Shown piece by piece: positions 14,340-57,586 of a stretch of DNA of 64,000 nt; the first letter of the stretch is position 1, and each line of letters begins with the position of its first letter. Made by a program: the position numbers and the translations under genes. Source of the DNA: Deltaproteobacteria bacterium (GTDB lineage: Bacteria > Bdellovibrionota_B > Oligoflexia > Oligoflexales > Bog-1112); contig JACPKR010000038.1 in NCBI GenBank assembly GCA_016186945.1, positions 15,472-79,471 of the forward strand. The letters run 5' to 3'. Below the pieces are notes generated by a model. It was not told the DNA's origin. It saw nothing but the letters and a program-made list of their open reading frames with translations, and searched no databases.

Positions 14340-16487
14340 ATGAGAATGACAAGATTCGTTTTTCCTTTCATCACTCTATTAACGATCAACCTGGCAACTC
14401 AAAGTTTTTCCTTGGGCGATATTTCATACGCACAGATGGGAGAATACCTGGAAAATCTTGGCTTAGGGGGTGAATGTACCGCAGAATCCTATCAGCGCAT
14501 GCGGGACATGCTCATAAACACGCTCTCCCAAATCCAAGATGTATCCTGTGAAGCCGAGCAGCAAACTTGCCAGAAAGGGAAGATCGTAGACTGCACCTTT
14601 CAATTCCCGCATGAGTGGTGCGTCCAACTTTTACAAAACGAAGAGGACGACGGTTTTTCCAAACCTCTCAGGAAAAACTTCGTCGCCATCCTCAAATACG
14701 GCATTGCGCAACTGGAAAAACACAAGTCTTCTGAAACGCAGGAGCAGGCATTCGTCTTCATGCTTGCGAAGAATATCCTCTACAATATTTTTTCTGTCCC
14801 GTTCAAAACCCGCAAGATGACCTTTGAAGAAATTGTCACCTTCCCTGCTAAATTGACCTCCAAATTACGCTACAGGGGAGAGAAAGACAGGCGGGAACCC
14901 ATAACGCTTGAAGATGCCAAGAAAGAGGCAAAGTTTCTCGTCGACCCAGAGTCTGCCCAGCCTGATCGCTTTCTCACACCCTCAGAACTGGTGGGGAAAA
15001 CACACGAAGAACTTGCTGCCCTTGACGTTCGGGAGGATCACCACATATGGCACTCTGAACGTTATATGAAGGAACACCCCCGGCTCTGGGACGACTTCAT
15101 GAAGATGATGCAGACCTTGATAGAGCAGAATCTCGACGAGAGAAACGATGTCGAAACTCCGTACGACTTGGACCTGATGCGCCAAGTCGTTTGGCTCGAA
15201 CGGTTCCAGGACTCCGCAGGTGTTCATCCCAAATTAAGAGTCCGTGATGTACACGGATTCAAATGGAAACTGAAATTCGGGAGCGAGTTTTTTTCCGAAC
15301 AACTAGCTAACTTTCTTTACCTTTCCCTTGGGGGGAAATACAACGATCTTAATTTTTCCCACACCGTCGCAAATCCCGTCTACGTGGTTCTCCAAGAAAA
15401 GCCAGTTGAGCAAATGCAACAAAATCGGAAAACCCAACTTGCATGCGTAACTATCGCTACCCCTGACGACCTTCAACAATGCCTTGATAAAAAATCTAAG
15501 AAGCCGATTAAAATAAGCCAATACGTCCTACCAGGAAACGTAGGTGTGATCGACGACTCCAATCTTGCTGCTTTCATGAAAGATTCCCACATGAAAGAGA
15601 AAGACCTATTGGGACGCCACTACATAGCACTGCACCAGGTTTCCATGGAGTTCCGTGATAAACGTATCCTAAAACGAACGGGACCTGCTCCTCACAGTAC
15701 GATGGGAAACGAAGATGATCGCGCGATGCGTGGTATGATCCTCTTCCATTTCTGGGTCGACAACTTCGATGTTAAAGATGACAACGGAGAAGGTGCACTT
15801 ATGCCTACCCCGTACGGCCCTCGTCAGCTCATCCAAGCACCTACCGACCTCGGTGGTGCTTTCCGCGGCTCGCTCGGTCACGGCACCGGTGTTCTTGGAA
15901 ATGGTATCGGTATCAATCATTACAATGAAAAAGATTGGCTTTTTGTTCCTGCGCTTGACAGGAGGCACTTGCTCTACCCAAGATTGATGACTTTCTTCCC
16001 CGATTCGGCAAAGAAAGCACGCTTCTCAGATACCCTCTGGATGGCGAAGAAGATTGTGGGCCTCCCCTTCGACACCATCAAACGAGGGGTTGATATGACC
16101 CCCCTTCCTGACTTCTATAAAGATCTCCTTCTCTATAAACTAGCGAAACGTCGAGCTGACTTAGCCAAACTATACGGTATTGAAGATTTGCTCGATGTAA
16201 GCACGCTCAAAATTCCGGAACACAAGGTATCGTTCGGTTGTCCTGGATGTGACGAGGAAATTGCCGAGCGTTACCATATTCCCGTCAGCCTGATCGCCGC
16301 AGAACGGAAAAAGCTAGGCATCGACGGAAAACAGTGGATCGAATCTGTTGTCAGAAAGGGAAGACTTGAAAAGTGCAACACGTCTCTTCTCATCAACCTG
16401 CTGGAGCGCTACGCTTACCCTGACGGGCTTTCCCGCAACCACCTCATCGTATTTGAAAAACCAGGGGTCTGCCGTTTCCATTTGTAA
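14340..16487 (+). CDS. secreted hypothetical protein with protein-kinase-like motifs
   Basis: Signal-peptide-like N-terminus (MRMTRFVFPFITLLTINLATQS). Motifs FKWKLKFG, FWVDNFDVKDDN (D-x-K-x-x-N) and TDLGGAF (DFG-like) in kinase order. Confidence 0.5.
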   Translation: MRMTRFVFPFITLLTINLATQSFSLGDISYAQMGEYLENLGLGGECTAESYQRMRDMLINTLSQIQDVSCEAEQQTCQKGKIVDCTFQFPHEWCVQLLQNEEDDGFSKPLRKNFVAILKYGIAQLEKHKSSETQEQAFVFMLAKNILYNIFSVPFKTRKMTFEEIVTFPAKLTSKLRYRGEKDRREPITLEDAKKEAKFLVDPESAQPDRFLTPSELVGKTHEELAALDVREDHHIWHSERYMKEHPRLWDDFMKMMQTLIEQNLDERNDVETPYDLDLMRQVVWLERFQDSAGVHPKLRVRDVHGFKWKLKFGSEFFSEQLANFLYLSLGGKYNDLNFSHTVANPVYVVLQEKPVEQMQQNRKTQLACVTIATPDDLQQCLDKKSKKPIKISQYVLPGNVGVIDDSNLAAFMKDSHMKEKDLLGRHYIALHQVSMEFRDKRILKRTGPAPHSTMGNEDDRAMRGMILFHFWVDNFDVKDDNGEGALMPTPYGPRQLIQAPTDLGGAFRGSLGHGTGVLGNGIGINHYNEKDWLFVPALDRRHLLYPRLMTFFPDSAKKARFSDTLWMAKKIVGLPFDTIKRGVDMTPLPDFYKDLLLYKLAKRRADLAKLYGIEDLLDVSTLKIPEHKVSFGCPGCDEEIAERYHIPVSLIAAERKKLGIDGKQWIESVVRKGRLEKCNTSLLINLLERYAYPDGLSRNHLIVFEKPGVCRFHL

Positions 16488-18173: not shown

Positions 18174-19694
18174 ATGCATGACGATGTTCGTTGCCGAAGT
18201 TTGTGGCTCGCTCTGACTCCTATGTTGTTTCTTGTCACATTGTTAGCTTTCAATCTCAAACTTTACGGTGACGGAGCAGCCGCTGGCCCTAACCAGGTTG
18301 CCCTTCTTTTGTCTGCTATGTTTGCAACATGCGTTGGTGTTTTTGCCTTGGGCATTCCCTATAAAAACATTGAGTCTGCCATCCTTGAATCTACAAGTCA
18401 TATTTTGCAGGCTATTCTCATCCTGTTGGTGGTGGGAGCTTTGATCAGCCTTTGGATACTGAGTGGAATCGTTCCGACTCTGATTTATTATGGCTTGAAG
18501 CTTCTCTCTTCCTCGATTTTTCTTCCCGTATCATGTGTCATTTGTACGATTGTCTCGCTTGCGACTGGTTCCAGTTGGTCGACCGCGGGAACGGTTGGAG
18601 TCGCCTTGATTGCAGTGGGCAAGGCACTTGGAATTCCCGAAGGCCTGGTCGCAGGTGCCATCATTTCCGGAGCATATTTTGGGGACAAGATGTCTCCTCT
18701 TTCCGACACAACCAACATGGCTTCTGCTATGGCCGGCGTCGATCTTTTTGACCACGTCAGACATATGCTTTACACAACCGTTCCTGCTTACACATTGGCT
18801 ATTCTGGGGTTTGTAATCACCGGGTTCTTCGTCACTCCCGCAGGGGGGGCGGACGGGAACATAACGGAAGTCCTTGGCGTCATCACTCAGAATTTCAACG
18901 TCGGACCACAGCATTTGTTTGTTCCGCTCCTGGTCTTGTTTCTCATAAGAAGGAAGATAGCTGCTTTACCTGCTTTGGCTGTAGGCTGCGTGCTCGCAGT
19001 TCCGTCAGCACTTCTATTTCAGCAACAATTTTTGCATCAAACTTTAGGAGAATCTTACGATGGCGCCAGTGTGTTCAAAATGATTATAAGCACAGCTGCC
19101 AACGGCTTCTCCAGCAAGACGGGATCGAGCTTGGTCGACGGCCTTCTCTCACAGGGGGGAATTTCGAAGATGCTAAGCACGCTTTGGCTCTTGATATCAG
19201 CGATGGTGTTCGGGGGAGCTCTGGAAGGATCGGGCATGTTGGCGCGTATTTCCCAAGCTTTGCTCAGCAGTGTCAGGAAAACGGTGAGCCTGATCGGAGC
19301 AACCCTGGCCAGCTGCCTTTTTGTCAACATGACTGTCGGTGACCAGTACCTTGCCATTGTCCTACCGGGCCGCATGTTTCGTTCGATCTATGCACGATAT
19401 AAACTCGATGCGCGCAATTTATCCCGCGCTCTCGAAGATGCCGGGACGGTTACGTCTGTGCTCGTGCCTTGGAACTCGTGCGGAGCCTACCATGCTGCCA
19501 CTCTGGGAGTGGCGACCTTGACGTACTTGCCGTTCTGCTTTTTCAACATTGCTAGCCCCTTGGTTTCGTTCGCTCTTGCTGCCCTTGGTTGGACAATCCT
19601 GAAGAGTTCAGAGAGCCAAGAAGAACAGAAATCGGATGCGATTTCCATTCCGGACCAAAAAAGGGTATCGTCATTTAGTGAACGTAATGCGTAA
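18174..19694 (+). CDS. nhaC: Na+/H+ antiporter NhaC family
   Basis: About 12 predicted TM segments and NhaC-type conserved blocks (GSSWSTAGT, GAYFGDKMSPLSDTT). The last 3 codons plus TAA lie in the MITE-1 TIR. Confidence 0.8.
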   Translation: MHDDVRCRSLWLALTPMLFLVTLLAFNLKLYGDGAAAGPNQVALLLSAMFATCVGVFALGIPYKNIESAILESTSHILQAILILLVVGALISLWILSGIVPTLIYYGLKLLSSSIFLPVSCVICTIVSLATGSSWSTAGTVGVALIAVGKALGIPEGLVAGAIISGAYFGDKMSPLSDTTNMASAMAGVDLFDHVRHMLYTTVPAYTLAILGFVITGFFVTPAGGADGNITEVLGVITQNFNVGPQHLFVPLLVLFLIRRKIAALPALAVGCVLAVPSALLFQQQFLHQTLGESYDGASVFKMIISTAANGFSSKTGSSLVDGLLSQGGISKMLSTLWLLISAMVFGGALEGSGMLARISQALLSSVRKTVSLIGATLASCLFVNMTVGDQYLAIVLPGRMFRSIYARYKLDARNLSRALEDAGTVTSVLVPWNSCGAYHAATLGVATLTYLPFCFFNIASPLVSFALAALGWTILKSSESQEEQKSDAISIPDQKRVSSFSERNA

Positions 19695-20887: not shown

Positions 20888-20924
20888 CTTGGGGGGCAAG
20901 GAGGTGGTTTGGAGGAAACATTAC
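20888..20924 (+). mobile_element. MITE-1 copy 5 (mini derivative: left arm joined to the ATTAC tip)
   Basis: CTTGGGGGGCAAGGAGGTGGTTTGGAGGAAAC+ATTAC. The folP stop codon (20921-20923) lies in the tip. Confidence 0.6.
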
Positions 20925-24814: not shown

Positions 24815-24937
24815 CAAGGGGATTTCTTGGAGGAACCAGCTGCGCAGTTTCCTCCAAACCACCTCCTTGCCACAAGAGGAACCAGCTGCGCAGTTTCCTC
24901 CAAACCACCTCCTTGCCACAAGCGGGTTGCGTATTAC
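24815..24937 (-). mobile_element. MITE-1 copy 7 (core duplicated in tandem, right TIR)
   Basis: Two successive GGAACCAGCTGCGCAGTTTCCTCCAAACCACCTCCTTGCCACAAG units, then CGGGTTGCGTATTAC. Fills the whole spacer between convergent stops. Confidence 0.8.
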
Positions 24938-30519: not shown

Positions 30520-30640
30520 CGTAGGACACTTGGGGCAAATAGGGAGAGGGGGGTTGGGGGGGCGAGTGAAGCGTCGCCTCCCCCGGATTTCTTGGAGGAA
30601 CCAGCTGCGCAGTTTCCTCCAAACCACATCAATGCATTAC
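30520..30640 (-). mobile_element. MITE-1 copy 8 (internally deleted), flanked by a 14-bp direct repeat
   Basis: CGTAGGACACTTGGGGCAAATAGGGAG...CCTCCAAACCACATCAATGCATTAC. CTACGTCAAAATCG occurs at 30506-30519 and 30641-30654. Confidence 0.75.
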
Positions 30641-45760: not shown

Positions 45761-47590
45761 CTAAAGCGGCTTTAGAACACGGTCTAATACTTCACGCTTG
45801 TGCTCAATATACCCGACCTCTGTGAGGAGCCTGCTAAACGCATCCCCAAAACTGTCTAAGGACTGCTGAACGCAAGATGTGAAAGATTGGTTCATCGAAC
45901 TTTCCGTTAAGAGCATTGCTCGGACAGCTAGCGTGCCCGCGACTACAGCCACACTCGTTCCCTTTCCTCCAACCCCCTTGTCCGGAGACGTCGATTTTGT
46001 GCTTGCATCTACACCTTGCAATCTTTGAGCAGTCGCAAATTCCTGCGCAAATGTACGCGCCTGAGCCTCAACCCTACTCGGGATGGACATGATCCCCCCC
46101 CCGAAATCCTTCTTGTAGATTCTCCCTAAGCAAGTCCCTGTCACCGCAGCACAATTATGGGTTAGGATATTGTACTCCCTACCGTACGAATTTTGAGCGC
46201 CCATCATTCTTTCTCTCATTGTTCGATAGGTCTGCAAATTATGGGCTATCTTCGCTCTGCCTGCCACACTGAGTTGCTCAAATTTCGGGTACGCAAGCTC
46301 TGGCTTGAGTCGCTGCTGTTCTGATGGAAAAATGTGATGCCAATATATGTCCTCCCCTTCAAGCAAGCCCATTTCCGCCTTCAGGGAACTTGTCAGGGTC
46401 GAGTAACTTTCAAGATTGTCCCTTAGAAAGACATAGTTTCGCATGTCCACCTGCAATTTTTGTAAAATTTCTGGCTCAGATGTTCTCAGACGCTCATAGT
46501 CATCAAAGCCTGTAAGAAAGTCTGCTCGTTTCAGGTAGGCTTCAAGAGCTTCATTAGTGGACAAATTTAACCTAGTTTTTAAAGATTCCTTGACCTCAGC
46601 AAGGTGGCTCTTCAACCCACTGTCGTAAATATTTTTTTCTTCAAAGTAAACTGTTTGTTGGAACCATTTGTGAAAGCTCTCGAACTGCTCTTCGGTCATG
46701 GGAGGCAATTCCGTAATCACCCTTCTGGTTGTTCCAAAACGAGCCGCATCAACCTCATAGCTATTTCCCATAGCCCAGGAAATATAGACACGGCGTGGAC
46801 TAGGCGTTTCGTCACCAATGAGGAGAGCTGAGTGTCCAAACATTTTGAGAAGAGCTATGCTTGGATCAATTTTTTCAGGATGCCATGTAATCAATCTAAC
46901 TCTTATAGCGCCGACCTGGCCTGGAGTTGCAAGACCAAGGGACAGCTTTTGCCCAAAAGAGCTGAAGTTTATCTGCCCTTGTCTGTGATACTGTTCCTGG
47001 AAGAATTCAGGGCCGTTTTCAATTAATTCATCTACAGACCCCCTATAATCCTCAACCGACTTTTTAAAAGTATCTTCCTCCTGGTTATTCCCTAGACAAA
47101 CATCCAGAGAATTCTTATGGGCTTCAAACGAGTTGTAAAGTTCTGTCAGTGTCTCTGACATTTCGATATTTAGTGATAACGTTAGGCGATGAACATCGAA
47201 CATAGTCTGATCGTTATAGGAATCGAAAGTTATCTTCCGTTCCTCTGACCATGGGGAGCATTTCCCATCGTCACTCTGCCCGGAAAATTGACATCGTCTA
47301 AATTGCAGAGAGTTGGCTCCAGGAACAAATCCAACCAGGTTAAGTTTCGACTCAGATGAAAAGTCTTCGACACAAGATTGCTTGTCACAAATTTTGTATC
47401 GGAAAAACTCACCCTTGTTCAGCGGAAACTCAAGAACAGGAATTTTCTCGTTATTGACGGTCTGATACGAAATGTTCCCCAGCTGCTGCCCAGAAAGCGT
47501 CTGCTCCTCCTCATGGCTTTTTTTGCAGGTTGACATGAGGAATAGAATTGAACATAGAGCTAGAGTAGCAACTCTGCGAACTCGTAGCAT
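45761..47590 (-). CDS. hypothetical lipoprotein, paralog A (His...Asn-Cys motif)
   Basis: Lipobox LFLMSTC. Cys-rich N-domain, FGHSALLIG (His codon 46832-46834) and YNILTHNCAAV (Cys codon 46151-46153). Paralogous to the upstream gene. Confidence 0.6.
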   Translation of the reverse strand: MLRVRRVATLALCSILFLMSTCKKSHEEEQTLSGQQLGNISYQTVNNEKIPVLEFPLNKGEFFRYKICDKQSCVEDFSSESKLNLVGFVPGANSLQFRRCQFSGQSDDGKCSPWSEERKITFDSYNDQTMFDVHRLTLSLNIEMSETLTELYNSFEAHKNSLDVCLGNNQEEDTFKKSVEDYRGSVDELIENGPEFFQEQYHRQGQINFSSFGQKLSLGLATPGQVGAIRVRLITWHPEKIDPSIALLKMFGHSALLIGDETPSPRRVYISWAMGNSYEVDAARFGTTRRVITELPPMTEEQFESFHKWFQQTVYFEEKNIYDSGLKSHLAEVKESLKTRLNLSTNEALEAYLKRADFLTGFDDYERLRTSEPEILQKLQVDMRNYVFLRDNLESYSTLTSSLKAEMGLLEGEDIYWHHIFPSEQQRLKPELAYPKFEQLSVAGRAKIAHNLQTYRTMRERMMGAQNSYGREYNILTHNCAAVTGTCLGRIYKKDFGGGIMSIPSRVEAQARTFAQEFATAQRLQGVDASTKSTSPDKGVGGKGTSVAVVAGTLAVRAMLLTESSMNQSFTSCVQQSLDSFGDAFSRLLTEVGYIEHKREVLDRVLKPL

Positions 47591-47602: not shown

Positions 47603-49186
47603 TCATCGTTTTTGATACATGTTGTCAAATCGTTCAGACTGTGCTTGAAGAATGGCTTCAAAAAAAGCCTGAGAGCGAACCTGATATTCTTCCAGCAGTC
47701 CACTACACGATCCTTCTAGACGCATAGAGGCAGCAGCACCGGCAACCGCTGCTCCGGTTAAAACAATTCCCAACAGAGCGACTCCCCTGGCATCACCGCT
47801 TGTGCGTCTGGCCTTCATCTCTCCCCGAACAGCCTCCTGCTTATGAGCCAAAGCCTGTGAACGCACTAGTGCTGGGGTGTCACTTGCTTGGATTGTTCTA
47901 TGTTGGTAGGGACGGAATTCATCGGTATTGTAAATGTCCTGTAAAACGCACATGCCTCTTTGCGCGCAATTCCAATTTGCTTTGTTATAGCTCTTTTCCT
48001 TCTGTTTTCTTGTACGATAGGCTCGCTGATATTCAAGAACCTTTTGGTAAGAATCAGAGTCCGGTTTTTTCCGAAGGGTTTCCTGCCATTTTTTCCCTTC
48101 TCTCCCTTCCAACCACGAATACGCGTCTTTTTGCGCAGTGCCCGCAGGGAGGTCTTGCTTGAACTTGGAAAACGTTGTCTCTTCAACTTTGCGAAGTTGG
48201 GTGTCCAACTCTTCATCCCAATAGCCACCCGTCTTCTGGTATGCCGCTTTGAACTGAGCCGCTTTCTCTTTCGTGATTTCCGGAAGTTCGATCACTTCCA
48301 GATCGGTCTTCTGGAATACATCCACGTCTTCACTCCAGCTATTGCGAAACGGAACTGAGTAGTAATCTGCCCCTTCTGGAAGAGATCTTGTTTCGAGTGC
48401 CGATTCCAGGTTAAATGCTCCTACAACGATGGCAACATGCCGATCATTGATTATTCTCTGGTAGAGTCTATCAAAGAATTGGGGCAACTCCTTCTGCTTC
48501 CAAACAAGCAAGGTTACTTTTACCGACTCTTTGTTAACGAGTTCAAATTTGTCAGTTTGTTCGGTTTGAAGAGCAGAAATTATGAACTGCGGGTTGGTCT
48601 CAACATCGATACGATTAGCAAAATGGAACGGAGTAGGGTCCCTTACTATAGCTGCTGAAACAAAGCTGTCGGGCTGGATGCCACACTGACGTAATTTTTC
48701 TCTCCACTCAACCGCATAAAGAAAAAACTCACTCGCTGACGATCTCACCAGAAGAGAATTCGTCCGTTCATTTGCCACGAACGTCGACAATTCAGCCGGA
48801 ACCTCTCCCTGCTGATAAGGAAAGGGAGGAAGCGAGTCTCGGCAAGCCAAACCGTCAATGTTTGTCCAACGACAAAAAAAAAGGGTGACCGTGTACTGTC
48901 CCGGAGCAAGCCAGTCTATTGTATGATTCTGAAAGGTAAAGAAATCAGTCTGGCATTCAGAATCACTTGCCTTGTCGGGGCAGATTTCGACCCGTACAAT
49001 GTCTTGCGGGTCCTTCTTTGGGAAATTTAAACCAAGAAACTTGGTCCCTTTGGCAGCTTCAGTTTCAAAGGTCTCATAAACCAAAACTCGATTAGGGCCT
49101 GTTGATTCCCCTTCCAGCACTGGCCTCTTAGGGGTTTTGCACCCAAAAGCAAGAAAAAGGAAAACTACAACGCATATGTTTTTCAT
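47603..49186 (-). CDS. hypothetical lipoprotein, paralog B (His...Asn-Cys motif)
   Basis: ATG at 49186 gives MKNICVVVFLFLAFGC (lipobox). DRHVAIVVG (His codon 48437-48439) and YNKANWNCAQRG (Cys codon 47966-47968). Confidence 0.6.
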   Translation of the reverse strand: MKNICVVVFLFLAFGCKTPKRPVLEGESTGPNRVLVYETFETEAAKGTKFLGLNFPKKDPQDIVRVEICPDKASDSECQTDFFTFQNHTIDWLAPGQYTVTLFFCRWTNIDGLACRDSLPPFPYQQGEVPAELSTFVANERTNSLLVRSSASEFFLYAVEWREKLRQCGIQPDSFVSAAIVRDPTPFHFANRIDVETNPQFIISALQTEQTDKFELVNKESVKVTLLVWKQKELPQFFDRLYQRIINDRHVAIVVGAFNLESALETRSLPEGADYYSVPFRNSWSEDVDVFQKTDLEVIELPEITKEKAAQFKAAYQKTGGYWDEELDTQLRKVEETTFSKFKQDLPAGTAQKDAYSWLEGREGKKWQETLRKKPDSDSYQKVLEYQRAYRTRKQKEKSYNKANWNCAQRGMCVLQDIYNTDEFRPYQHRTIQASDTPALVRSQALAHKQEAVRGEMKARRTSGDARGVALLGIVLTGAAVAGAAASMRLEGSCSGLLEEYQVRSQAFFEAILQAQSERFDNMYQKR

Positions 49187-49229
49187 TTTCAGTTCCCAAT
49201 GTGCATAATCCATGTTGTTGTTTCAGTAT

Positions 49230-49498
49230 ATTATGCATAAGCCACGCGGGGCAAGGAGGTGGTTTGGAGGAAACGTAATGCGTAAGCCACGCGGGGCAAG
49301 GAGGTGGTTTGGAGGAAACGTAATGCGTAAGCCACGCGGGGCAAGGAGATGGTTTGGAGGAAACGTAATGCGTAAGCGACGCGGGGCAAGGAGGTGGTTT
49401 GGAGGAAACGTAATGCGTAAGCCACTCGGGGCAAGGAGGTGGTTTGGAGGAAACTGCGCAGCTGGTTCCTCCAAGAAATCCCTGGGGGGAGGCGGCTC
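49230..49498 (+). repeat. MITE-1 copy 13: four 45-bp tandem units of TIR plus left arm, then a complete left half with core hairpin
   Basis: Units start at 49230, 49275, 49320, 49365 and 49410. The unit is GTAATGCGTAAGCCACGCGGGGCAAGGAGGTGGTTTGGAGGAAAC. Confidence 0.9.
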
Positions 49499-49500
49499 CT

Positions 49501-49965
49501 CTAAGCTTTCTGATCCCCCGACCTTCCAAAGGAATCAACGGGCAGTCTGGTGGGATGACCGCGTTCATTGACAGACACAAGGCGGACAAGGCCAGTGACA
49601 TGCGTGCTAGTTACCCCGTTTTCATTTAGACACGCAGTATGGTGGCAGGTGACTACTGCAGGATGGTCGAACACGATCTTACTTTTTATTGTGATGACGT
49701 CGCCATGACGGACGGGTTTGTGGAAGCTAAGCTGAGCATCCTTCACGACGAAGTGCTTGCCTTCGAGGTAAAGTTTCCTCAGTTGCTCGCGACCGAAAAG
49801 TTCTTCCCGAGCACGTTCGAAGAATTTTAGAAAATTAGCGTGATAGACATAACCCGTGAAGTCCGTATCTTCATAGTAAATCGGCACCTGGAATTCACCT
49901 TCCACAAGTCTCCTCGAAAGTTTCCGTCTAGGAGCGGCTTTTGAATTTATTGAGAAGGTCCTCAA
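49501..49965 (-). CDS. acyl-CoA thioesterase, 4HBT/YbgC family
   Basis: YYEDTDFTGYVYHANFLKFFERAREE hot-dog motif. A GTG at 49905 would avoid overlap with tex. Confidence 0.75.
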   Translation of the reverse strand: MRTFSINSKAAPRRKLSRRLVEGEFQVPIYYEDTDFTGYVYHANFLKFFERAREELFGREQLRKLYLEGKHFVVKDAQLSFHKPVRHGDVITIKSKIVFDHPAVVTCHHTACLNENGVTSTHVTGLVRLVSVNERGHPTRLPVDSFGRSGDQKA

Positions 49966-52921: not shown

Positions 52922-52949
52922 GGATCCCGCGGTCAAGCCGCGGGATGAC
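52922..52949 (+). repeat. REP-like hairpin element, copy 1
   Basis: GGATCCCGCGGTCAAGCCGCGGGATGAC (7-bp perfect stem CCCGCGG/CCGCGGG, loop TCAAG). Second copy at 59379-59406. Confidence 0.8.
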
Positions 52950-53284
52950 AGACTCAAAAAAGCGGGATGACAGACTCAAAAAAGCGGGATGACAGACTCA
53001 AAAAAGCGGGATGACAGACTCAAAAAAGCGGGAAACAGACTCAAAAAAGCGGGAAACAGACTCAAAAAAGCGGGAAACAGACTCAAAAAAGCGGGAAACA
53101 GACTCAAAAAAGCGGGAAACAGACTCAAAAAAGCGGGATGACAGACTCAAAAAAGCGGGAAACAGACTCAAAAAAGCGGGATGACAGACTCAAAAAAGCG
53201 GGATGACAGACTCAAAAAAGCGGGATGACAGACTCAAAAAAGCGGGAAACAGACTCAAAAAAGCGGGATGACAGACTCAAAAAA
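52940..53284. repeat. 16-unit tandem array of 22-bp (GCGGGATGACAGACTCAAAAAA) and 21-bp (GCGGGAAACAGACTCAAAAAA) units
   Basis: Counted unit by unit. The order is L L L L S S S S S L S L L L S L (9 long, 7 short, 345 bp). Units are otherwise identical. Confidence 0.95.
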
Positions 53285-53296
53285 GTTTGTCCCCCA

Positions 53297-56436: not shown

Positions 56437-56596
56437 GTAATGCGTAAGCCAGGTAATGCGTAAGCCACTTGGGGCAAGGAGGTGGTTTGGAGGAAACTGC
56501 GCAGCTGGTTCCTCCAAGCAATCCCTTGGGGGGGCGACGGTTCCCTCGCCCCCCCAAATCCCCCTCTCCCTATTTGCCCCAAGTGGCTTACGCATT
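56437..56596 (+). mobile_element. MITE-1 copy 14 (full length, both TIRs, left TIR partly duplicated)
   Basis: GTAATGCGTAAGCCAG+GTAATGCGTAAGCCACTTGGGGCAAGGAGGTGG...CTATTTGCCCCAAGTGGCTTACGCATT. Confidence 0.9.
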
Positions 56597-57586
56597 CCAA
56601 ATATCGTCAACCGGCTCATCTTCGTTGCGCATGGAAAGGCCAACGATGCGAGGTCGGAGGGAAGGAGGAAGTATGTCGGGATTGACAACGGGCATCTGTC
56701 TACGAAGTGGAGAAGGGTTGCGCACAGAAAAATCTAATGATGCTAAGATGGCGCGTGCTATATACCAGACAGCTTGATGATCCGTTCCGTGTGCGGTTTT
56801 GATGGCGACCCCCAAGCCTTGCGGAAAATCAGCGTGACGAATACCTAAGCACAAAAGGCCATCTGCACCTTCTTTGGATACAACCTGCCCCATGCACGCT
56901 TTCATGACGATTGAGTCGACCCGGTTCATGCCTCCAATAAGATAAGGGTTGCGCACCATTGCTTCCCAAACCCAATCACTGTCCTTGTTTTTTGCGAGAG
57001 AACTAAAGAGTGTTGCCAATTCCCTCAACCTGAAAGAGACAGTGGGAAGATTACATCCGTCCTTTGCTATGAATTGCGGAGACCATTGAGGACCGAGTGT
57101 CTGGCGTATGACGTCGATAAATCCTTTATGAAAAGGGTGGGTCGGCAAATTATAGCTCACACGTGGCCACCCCTTTAATTGACAACCTCGCAAGAGGGCT
57201 GAATGCTCACCGGAGCAGGTATGATACCAACGACTAGGTTTGCGAATCTGTTTGCCAAATTGTTGAAGAGGAAGAGTGTGAGGTGTTTGCACCAAACGTT
57301 GTTCAGACGGTCTGAGGATACTTTTCGCTAGTTCCAGATGGCAAGGTTCTGCGTTGTGTGAGGACACACCGATGGCCTTTTGCTCCCAGGTTAAACTCTT
57401 GTCCAGCTCCTTCGAAAAGACTTTGATGTGAAATGGTTTGACTGACGAGCGACCGTAGGTCGTGATGTCTCCCCCGTGGGAATGGATCAGCTTATTTCCA
57501 CTTACCCAAGCGACGGCACCTAACTTTGCAACTTCACAAAGGCCTGCTCTTCGGTATTCAACCAATATTTCCCAATGATTTTTCAT
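56588..57586 (-). CDS. asparaginase II (PF06089-like) family protein
   Basis: RSSVKPF, SSHN.EP.H, HTCSGEHSALL, DGCNLPT and KEGADGL blocks in the order of the L-asparaginase II family. The last codons and TAA lie in the MITE-1 TIR. Confidence 0.6.
   Translation of the reverse strand: MKNHWEILVEYRRAGLCEVAKLGAVAWVSGNKLIHSHGGDITTYGRSSVKPFHIKVFSKELDKSLTWEQKAIGVSSHNAEPCHLELAKSILRPSEQRLVQTPHTLPLQQFGKQIRKPSRWYHTCSGEHSALLRGCQLKGWPRVSYNLPTHPFHKGFIDVIRQTLGPQWSPQFIAKDGCNLPTVSFRLRELATLFSSLAKNKDSDWVWEAMVRNPYLIGGMNRVDSIVMKACMGQVVSKEGADGLLCLGIRHADFPQGLGVAIKTAHGTDHQAVWYIARAILASLDFSVRNPSPLRRQMPVVNPDILPPSLRPRIVGLSMRNEDEPVDDIWNA

Follow-up and report, generated by a model that had tools for sequence, protein, structure and literature searches.

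A five-unit 45-nt tandem array upstream of a lipoprotein gene, probably amplified in place from one arm of a dispersed, hairpin-rich repeat

In a short-read metagenome-assembled genome (MAG) from groundwater, labelled Deltaproteobacteria bacterium at NCBI (HYW48 locus tags), a 45-nt sequence stands five times head to tail between a thioesterase gene and a putative lipoprotein gene. This poses the question of how the array arose, and whether it serves the genes beside it. We analysed it within a 64,000-nt stretch (hereafter the window) of a 96,071-bp contig. An earlier note, made from the letters of the window, had described the array as a tandem expansion of one arm of a MITE (miniature inverted-repeat transposable element) and suggested that it could be phase-variable. 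Here, we propose that the array probably arose where it stands, by tandem amplification of the left-hand 45 nt of a truncated repeat copy of the MITE/REPIN kind, and is a by-product that resembles a variable-number tandem repeat (VNTR). Such an array would most likely be selectively neutral; a dedicated function is less likely than neutrality.

Tandem Repeats Finder (TRF), run on the window, reports a repeat at 49233-49454 with a period of 45, 4.9 copies, 96% matches, no indels and a score of 416, and a second repeat finder returns five in-register copies at a spacing of 45/45/45/45. The 25-mer GGCAAGGAGGTGGTTTGGAGGAAAC recurs in the array at 49250, 49295, 49340 (one mismatch), 49385 and 49430; across the window it has 19 matches, five in the array and 14 elsewhere, against a shuffle expectation of 0.00. 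Both repeat finders and the 25-mer count confirm the array, and the unit starts and the consensus given for it in the earlier note are correct. The figure of one to three substitutions per unit holds for units 1, 3, 4 and 5 (3, 1, 1 and 1) and fails for unit 2, which has none. The array and the element in which it resides comprise the following parts.

49230-49274, plus strand: unit 1, the closest to the lipoprotein gene; its tip has diverged from the array consensus by three substitutions, ATTATGCAT replacing GTAATGCGT
49275-49319, plus strand: unit 2, identical to the array consensus
49320-49364, plus strand: unit 3, carrying a single private change, GGAGGTGG to GGAGATGG
49365-49409, plus strand: unit 4, likewise with a single private change, from AGCCAC to AGCGAC
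49410-49454, plus strand: unit 5, the resident element's original left end, with one substitution relative to the array consensus
49455-49494, plus strand: remainder of the truncated resident element (consensus positions 46-85), made up of the hairpin apex, the hairpin 3' arm and the start of a second hairpin
49444-49474, no strand assigned: hairpin 1, with arms TTGGAGGAAAC / TGGTTCCTCCAA and apex CTGCGCAG; a single 3' arm faces five possible 5' arms

Each unit corresponds to positions 1-45 of the element consensus, from the outer tip through the GCAAGGAGG arm to the 5' half of hairpin 1. Its first part is a lineage-specific outer inverted-repeat tip, GTAATGCGTAAGCCACnnGG; its second part joins the family-conserved GCAAGGAGG motif to the 5' arm of hairpin 1. 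The unit is therefore, as had been proposed, the left terminal inverted repeat (TIR) plus the arm of a dispersed MITE-like element that resembles a Shine-Dalgarno (SD) sequence. The passage of the last unit into the core hairpin is likewise borne out. Unit 5 continues into TTGGAGGAAAC-TGCGCAGC-TGGTTCCTCCAA, and the resident element runs on to consensus position 85, where it is truncated 6 nt short of the thioesterase stop codon.

The longest perfectly periodic span of the array is 111 nt, which can be resolved by 150-nt reads or by k>66 and makes the five units credible. Exact-protein look-ups of the flanking genes brought up Logan and ENA contigs only, and all of those retrieved end at the array edges. 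The unit-junction and core patterns have no match in metagenome contigs or among viral contigs, and no match was found among plasmids.

The history of the units was read from an alignment of the five units with seven dispersed copies of the element. Two derived bases mark the array: a C at column 18 (T-to-C) in all five units, and a G at column 17 (T-to-G) in units 1-4. Neither occurs in any of the dispersed copies, six of which read ACTTGG or a close variant, while copy c4843 has diverged over its whole left end. Unit 5, with ACTCGG, is intermediate between the ACTTGG of the family and the ACGCGG of units 1-4. Because these derived bases are common to the units and absent from the dispersed copies, the units must descend from one another at the locus, which bears out the in-place amplification proposed earlier. 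The array grew outward from unit 5; duplication took place in two rounds or more, with point mutation in between, and further changes have followed since. Private substitutions (three in unit 1, one each in units 3 and 4), together with nested shared ones, indicate that the array has not been homogenised recently. This pattern is that of an ageing VNTR and not of a rapidly cycling contingency repeat; in-place growth and ageing together argue against a fast phase-variable switch. Slippage through the TGCG microhomology at positions 5-8 and 46-49 was considered as a route and rejected, as it would yield a 41-nt period and not 45, and nested insertions were rejected because a single right-hand tail is present.

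The array belongs to a dispersed family with about 19 loci in the window, or about one copy per 3.4 kb. A 147-nt consensus, built from five near-full-length copies, consists of a perfect 25-nt TIR (GTAATGCGTAAGCCACTTGGGGCAA / TTGCCCCAAGTGGCTTACGCATTAC, the element ends being given as GTAATGCGTAAGCC), a first hairpin (TTGGAGGAAAC-TGCGCAGC-TGGTTCCTCCAA) and a second, G/C-rich hairpin. As a single strand it folds at -56 kcal/mol (z = -12). The copies are non-coding and 50-170 nt long, and most are short forms that retain only GGCAAGGAGGTGG and hairpin 1. This core is 100% identical in most copies, and the inner 50 nt are much better conserved than the outer inverted-repeat tips, which vary. Nearly all copies are intergenic, and they lie in either orientation relative to the genes, mostly just past stop codons (many within 10-70 nt of one). 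Internal tandem duplications occur in three of the ~19 window copies. TRF finds 46 nt x2 at 24830-24922, comprising the core and most of hairpin 1 at 100% identity, and 16 nt x2 of the inverted-repeat tip at 56437-56467; the third case is the five-unit array, the only locus with more than two tandem copies.

In line with a MITE, the family has terminal inverted repeats and is small, non-coding and present in many dispersed copies. No parent insertion sequence (IS) with the same inverted repeats and a transposase was found within the window, where none of 42 open reading frames (ORFs) scanned against Pfam encodes a transposase and a tblastn search with a Y1 transposase query returned nothing. 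The sole copy with both tips nearly intact (56453-56598) has no clear target-site duplication, and a copy at ~30527-30640 is flanked by a 14-nt direct repeat, CGATTTTGACGTAG, with both tips damaged. Rfam gave no meaningful match at gathering or permissive thresholds; the long hairpins match miRNA precursor models far below cut-off. We read the family as a previously undescribed intergenic repeat of the MITE/REPIN kind, present in many copies, non-coding and rich in hairpins.

Other identities of the element were rejected. Derivation from the 3' end of 16S rRNA would rest on a 9-nt anti-SD identity, or on a shared patch of 14 nt in the variant found on the related contig L012 (see below); the fold differs, and p is about 0.01 against shuffles. 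A terminator role is contradicted by the lack of a U-run after the hairpin in either orientation, and use of the element SD as a ribosome-binding site for downstream genes by start-codon distances that are not constant.

Where the units end is informative. The left unit boundary is the exact outer tip of the element, and every unit stops at the 5' stem/apex junction of hairpin 1, AAAC|TGCG (the bar marks the break). The copy at 20893-20919 is truncated at the same AAAC| (GGAGGAAAC|ATTACC), and on the Oligoflexales MAG contig JAGNWK010000024 (L012) the same arm is duplicated over 25 nt at 15583-15631 (TGGCAAGGACGGGTTTTGGGGAAAAC|TGGCAAGGAGGGGTTTGGGGAAAC|TGCGCAGC...), independently of the array. 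The AAAC| breakpoint is thus seen in three independent events in two genomes. Taken with the other duplications, these recurrent breaks indicate that the family is duplication-prone in general and that the hairpin apex is a hot spot. Tandem expansion of only one arm had been called unusual, which is overstated given three duplicated copies among ~19 in the window, an independent same-arm duplication in a related genome and the precedent of BOX elements discussed below. Two convergent genes flank the truncated copy at 20893-20919, and the bases that follow its break, ATTAC, equal the last 5 nt of the element's right end.

A first head-to-tail duplicate may have arisen from a stall or break at the extruded hairpin apex. 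SbcCD-type hairpin nucleases cut on the 5' side of the loop. Expansion would then have proceeded by replication slippage or unequal sister-strand exchange between 45-nt units, and slipped structures would be favoured by the single 3' arm, which could pair with any of the five 5' arms. Such growth would have three side effects: 180 bp of additional C/U-rich, unstructured spacer between the thioesterase and lipoprotein genes, spurious ORFs and, in the gene-proximal diverged unit and its flank, a possible promoter for the lipoprotein pair.

The family extends beyond the window. The Tex protein of the source genome shares at most 64-66% identity with any other on record, and its nearest neighbours are from Pseudobdellovibrionaceae and Oligoflexales MAGs. 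A covariance model (R1), built from 15 window cores and 3 L012 cores, detects diverged members in L086 and L085, the nearest relatives (Tex 64-65% identical).

L086, 2348-2452: 105-nt member with ends AGCAAGGAGG.../...CCTCATCCTTGCT, between convergent genes
L085, 1302-1355: member
L085, 14666-14713: member
L085, 15231-15264: member

At L085 1302-1355 the module forms the entire 53-nt gap between co-oriented genes, and UUUUU follows the hairpin. With the same model, no member was found at E <=0.1 in L003, L004, L005, L092 or L093. In L012/L088, with a Tex only 55% identical, the same core is present at 15583-15705 and 18805-18852 (~95% identity over 40 nt), with one stem base pair gone from both arms (GGAGG/CCTCC to GGGG/CCCC). 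The 25-nt duplication of the SD-like arm in L012 lies upstream of argS. All four genomes retain the (A/G)GCAAGGAGG motif together with the apex GAAAC-U-RCGCAG-Y-UGGUU; in the lower stem three pairs show double changes, and 97.6% of cells pair versus 93.4% in shuffles. The evidence for covariation is modest, because the stem changes trace to very few events. In the lineage of the window the inverted repeat is extended outward by 20 nt.

A candidate enzyme is encoded at L088 1247-1990 (minus strand), a 247-aa Y1_Tnp protein that scores 37.5 bits against REP_Tyr_transpos, below the 80-bit cut-off. The modules stand 14 kb away from its gene and do not flank it. A weak Y1_Tnp fragment is also found in L092, a lineage without a detected module copy. 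Directly upstream of the L088 gene (2044-2198) is an 11-copy tandem array of a 14-nt unit, CGTGCCTTACTTGT, whose GTGCCTTAC agrees with the window element tip GTGGCTTAC at 8 of 9 positions, possibly by chance.

By its architecture, the array has its closest known analogue in the pneumococcal BOX elements. BOX is a MITE-like repeat, boxA-boxB(n)-boxC, in which the 45-bp boxB is amplified in variable number; large arrays create mis-annotated ORFs on both strands, and the elements supply gene ends (PMC3049150, PMC4414480). Here, too, a small, non-coding, MITE-like interspersed repeat with inverted ends is often found at gene 3' ends and carries a head-to-tail module of this length (45 nt x5, with 46 nt x2 at 24830-24922 and 25 nt x2 in L012), and one copy acts as the annotated C-terminus and stop of a gene, that of the protein P0126 described below. 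In contrast to BOX, where a self-contained internal module is amplified, the unit here is a terminal arm (TIR tip plus half stem). The two occur in different phyla, and the likeness is one of architecture; no relationship in sequence emerged, though no BOX sequence was set against the element. More than two copies occur at 1 of the ~19 loci here, and variable unit number is documented for BOX strains only.

The REP, BIME and REPIN-RAYT systems share with the family a hairpin of ~30 nt with a conserved flanking motif, a very high copy number with near-identity within a genome, and divergence between lineages with compensatory stem changes. Singlets and inverted pairs that fold into a long hairpin, clusters and tandem arrangements, and a position mostly just past stop codons in either orientation are further points in common. 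Unlike in REPs, the conserved flank is GCAAGGAGG and not GTAG/CGTC (PMC3733652). Furthermore, the window holds no RAYT, the RAYT-like gene of L012 is sub-threshold and unflanked by the module, and BIMEs alternate whole inverted REPs, whereas half a hairpin is directly repeated here. Given the sub-threshold, unflanked Y1 gene and the absent GTAG/CGTC tag, we do not file the family as REP/RAYT.

The MIRU-type intergenic VNTRs of mycobacteria, reportedly described by Supply et al. in 1997, resemble the array in having tandem units of 40-100 bp that separate genes pointing the same way, in a unit length that is a multiple of three, and in units that differ by point changes; MIRUs are stable enough for typing. 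They differ in that MIRU ORFs overlap the flanking stop and start codons (translational coupling), which no in-frame ORF does here, and in that MIRUs are not arms of an inverted-repeat element. Correia elements of Neisseria are MITEs of ~150 bp with inverted ends, whose termini can supply promoter hexamers and which are co-transcribed with their neighbours. The element studied here has a similar size, inverted ends and termini that may supply promoter hexamers. Correia elements, in contrast, are not tandemly amplified, and their promoter and RNase III functions are established by experiment, whereas the promoter proposed here is a consensus match only.

Whether the array could affect its neighbours depends on their arrangement, which is as follows.

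49501-49905, minus strand: 4HBT-family thioesterase, last gene of a conserved ndk-tex-thioesterase string, with its stop at 49501
47603-49186, minus strand: putative lipoprotein of 527 aa, starting MKNICVVVFLFLAFGC, with a signal peptide and a lipobox-like Cys
45761-47590, minus strand: second lipoprotein-like gene (609 aa), 12 nt after the first
49225-49254, minus strand: sigma-70-like match, TTGCCC-18 nt-TATACT, spanning unit 1 and the adjoining flank and placed upstream of the lipoprotein ATG by 38 nt; a consensus match only
49212-49571, plus strand: 119-codon ORF with MRKPRGARRWFGGNV repeats, a product of the 45-nt (15-codon) period and judged a by-product

The array lies, as first described, between the stop codon of the thioesterase gene (49501) and the start codon of the lipoprotein gene (49186), both genes being on the minus strand; 43 nt separate it from the lipoprotein start. 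Neither lipoprotein-like protein (527 and 609 aa) has a Pfam domain, and a search of 5.8 billion protein clusters gave no homologue of the 527-aa protein and hence no orthologous locus for comparison. Between the two proteins the identity is 26% over 122 aa (E = 2e-4), for which the label of paralogue used earlier is generous. Relatives keep the ndk-tex-thioesterase string, followed there by a fabH-like gene and not by the lipoprotein genes. As the string is conserved and the lipoprotein genes are lineage-specific, synteny is broken where the array stands.

On the minus strand, which is sense for both neighbours, the 314-nt intergenic region holds four exact CACCTCCTT, one CATCTCCTT and ten CCTCC. 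As RNA, these read as four exact CACCUCCUU, one CAUCUCCUU and ten CCUCC, all anti-SD motifs. The five anti-SD mimics that the earlier note placed in a read-through leader are therefore present as motifs, and an mRNA that reads through would carry them. If the promoter in unit 1 is used, with a transcript start at about 49217, units 2-5 would lie upstream of the lipoprotein transcript and not in its leader. For array RNA read in the sense of the genes, the predicted fold is no better than that of shuffles (z = -0.38), and the lipoprotein start is preceded by a weak SD-like GGGAAC only.

The long plus-strand ORF can be traced to the composition of the unit, four of whose six frames contain no stop codon. 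On the plus strand, GGAGG-N7-ATG stands at each of the four unit junctions. Ten ORF variants across the four open frames are all absent as proteins from a collection of ~15 billion sequences. The open frames and the lack of any variant on record uphold the view that the repeat ORF is artefactual. A search with the concatenated array-frame peptides gave a sole match, the UbiG-like methyltransferase P0126, encoded outside the window on a 31-kb contig of an NCBI MAG also labelled 'Deltaproteobacteria bacterium'. Its last ~60 annotated residues (...RKPLGARRWFGGNCAAGSSKKSGGGDASLAPPNPPLPICPKWLTHY...) are a translated full-length element copy; probably, either the annotated C-terminus is falsely extended or the repeat furnishes the end of the gene.

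Several points weigh against the reading proposed here. Both unit boundaries fall at meaningful positions, the element end and AAAC|, and the AAAC|GTAA junction has no visible microhomology; simple slippage predicts neither, and an enzyme-made nick would explain the boundaries better. The unit count rests on a short-read assembly in which extra consensus units would collapse, so that five is a lower bound. The promoter match reaches 9/12 only, and the region holds three such matches against 0.6 +/- 0.9 in shuffles. Finally, that the array is neutral we infer from an absence of signals. An enzymatic origin is accordingly worth weighing. Here, a Y1/HUH nuclease of the RAYT-like kind or a DDE transposase would cut at the tip and at AAAC|TGCG, and aberrant rejoining or re-insertion would build arrays. 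Both boundaries are then defined positions of the element, the same AAAC| break in three independent events in two genomes would find its cause, and the invariance of GCAAGGAGG and apex in four genomes, while the stem covaries, is as expected of a recognition site. A RAYT-like Y1 transposase gene in the L012 genome and the weak Y1_Tnp fragment in L092, a lineage without detected module, point the same way. Still, no transposase of any kind is encoded in the 64-kb window, and the L012 gene stays below the RAYT cut-off (37 versus 80 bits) and is unflanked by the module. Known IS200/IS605 and RAYT enzymes cut outside the hairpin and not at its apex. The REP-typical GTAG/CGTC tag (PMC3733652) is absent, and a TG microhomology at the L012 junction is compatible with plain slippage. 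We therefore regard such a footprint as unlikely, and as very unlikely a more elaborate form of it. In the latter, GCAAGGAGG, the apex (GAAAC-U-RCGCAG-Y-UGGUU) and the covarying lower stem would be a selected, clade-wide module of Oligoflexia-like Bdellovibrionota, nicked at its apex (AAAC|UGCG) by a dedicated single-strand nuclease or transposase and leaving arrays as footprints. The five-unit array would, in addition, modulate the adjacent ORFan lipoprotein operon according to copy number, whether as anti-SD sponge or as promoter spacer. Such an apex-nicking module would represent a REP/RAYT-like system with new recognition logic.

The array might instead be a phase-variable regulatory module, in which gain and loss of 45-nt units tune the lipoprotein pair through the CACCUCCUU/CCUCC anti-SD mimics or through promoter spacing. 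It lies, outside coding sequence, 43 nt upstream of a pair of surface-lipoprotein-like ORFans, a typical phase-variable gene class. The mRNA-sense strand carries the four exact CACCUCCUU and ten CCUCC, and one 3' arm facing five alternative 5' arms favours slippage. In addition, boxB number is strain-variable and can affect downstream expression (PMC3049150). Against this, the units are not identical, and their shared and private substitutions are nested; only the weak GGGAAC is available at the lipoprotein start for mimics to compete with; the RNA structure of the array is not beyond chance; and the promoter-like site is downstream of units 2-5. Slippage, moreover, is far rarer for units of 45 nt than for the units of 1-8 nt in classical contingency loci. 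A second allele was not found, the retrieved assemblies ending at the array. On the sequence, phase variation appears somewhat disfavoured, and the module as set out here seems distinctly unlikely. A more trivial origin, in which population variants of a shorter repeat were threaded through a short-read assembly or the units were miscounted, is suggested by the source, a MAG contig, and by the ending of all retrieved Logan/ENA contigs for the flanking genes at the array edges. It is nevertheless improbable to a high degree: four of the five units have distinguishing bases, among them 49238A, 49349A, 49378G and 49426T, the longest periodic span of 111 nt is within 150-nt reads and k>66, assemblers collapse tandem repeats and do not inflate them, and the contig breaks are equally expected from a ~50-nt core common to many loci. 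Hardly any weight falls on the plus-strand ORF (52 to 112 codons by start) as a real gene for a basic repeat peptide. GGAGG-N7-ATG, from which it would be initiated, stands at four junctions, a weak plus-strand promoter-like site is present at 49180-49209, and the unit 3 substitution is synonymous in the ORF frame. Yet the other three or four substitutions are non-synonymous, the openness of four of six frames stems from composition, and the ORF runs antisense into the thioesterase gene. Protein collections hold no such protein or homologue apart from P0126, where the match is an annotated C-terminus through another element copy. In-place amplification of the element's left end remains the reading that we prefer.

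The family behind the array is a more useful result than the array itself, which is of modest interest; what merits further attention is the repeat family, with its recurrent break at the apex. The family is a dense, undescribed repeat whose core of GCAAGGAGG plus hairpin is kept, with compensatory changes, across genomes with Tex proteins only 55-66% identical. If the AAAC| breakpoint is enzyme-made, it would offer a tractable new case of hairpin-directed DNA mobilisation; if it is not, it would be a further example of hairpin-rich repeats seeding VNTRs. In practical terms, the array and its relatives yield spurious ORFs and false C-terminal extensions such as that of P0126 in annotation, and family copies break short-read assemblies of the lineage at every copy.

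A second, unrelated tandem array occurs in the window at 52940-53285, 3.5 kb from the five-unit array. It consists of 16 copies of a 21/22-nt unit, GCGGGA(TG/A)ACAGACTCAAAAAA (TRF score 594-616), with the ndk start (52824) on one side and the upstream gene's stop (53297) on the other. Because its A6 tracts are spaced 21-22 bp apart, roughly two turns of the helix, the DNA just upstream of the ndk-tex-thioesterase string is probably strongly curved.

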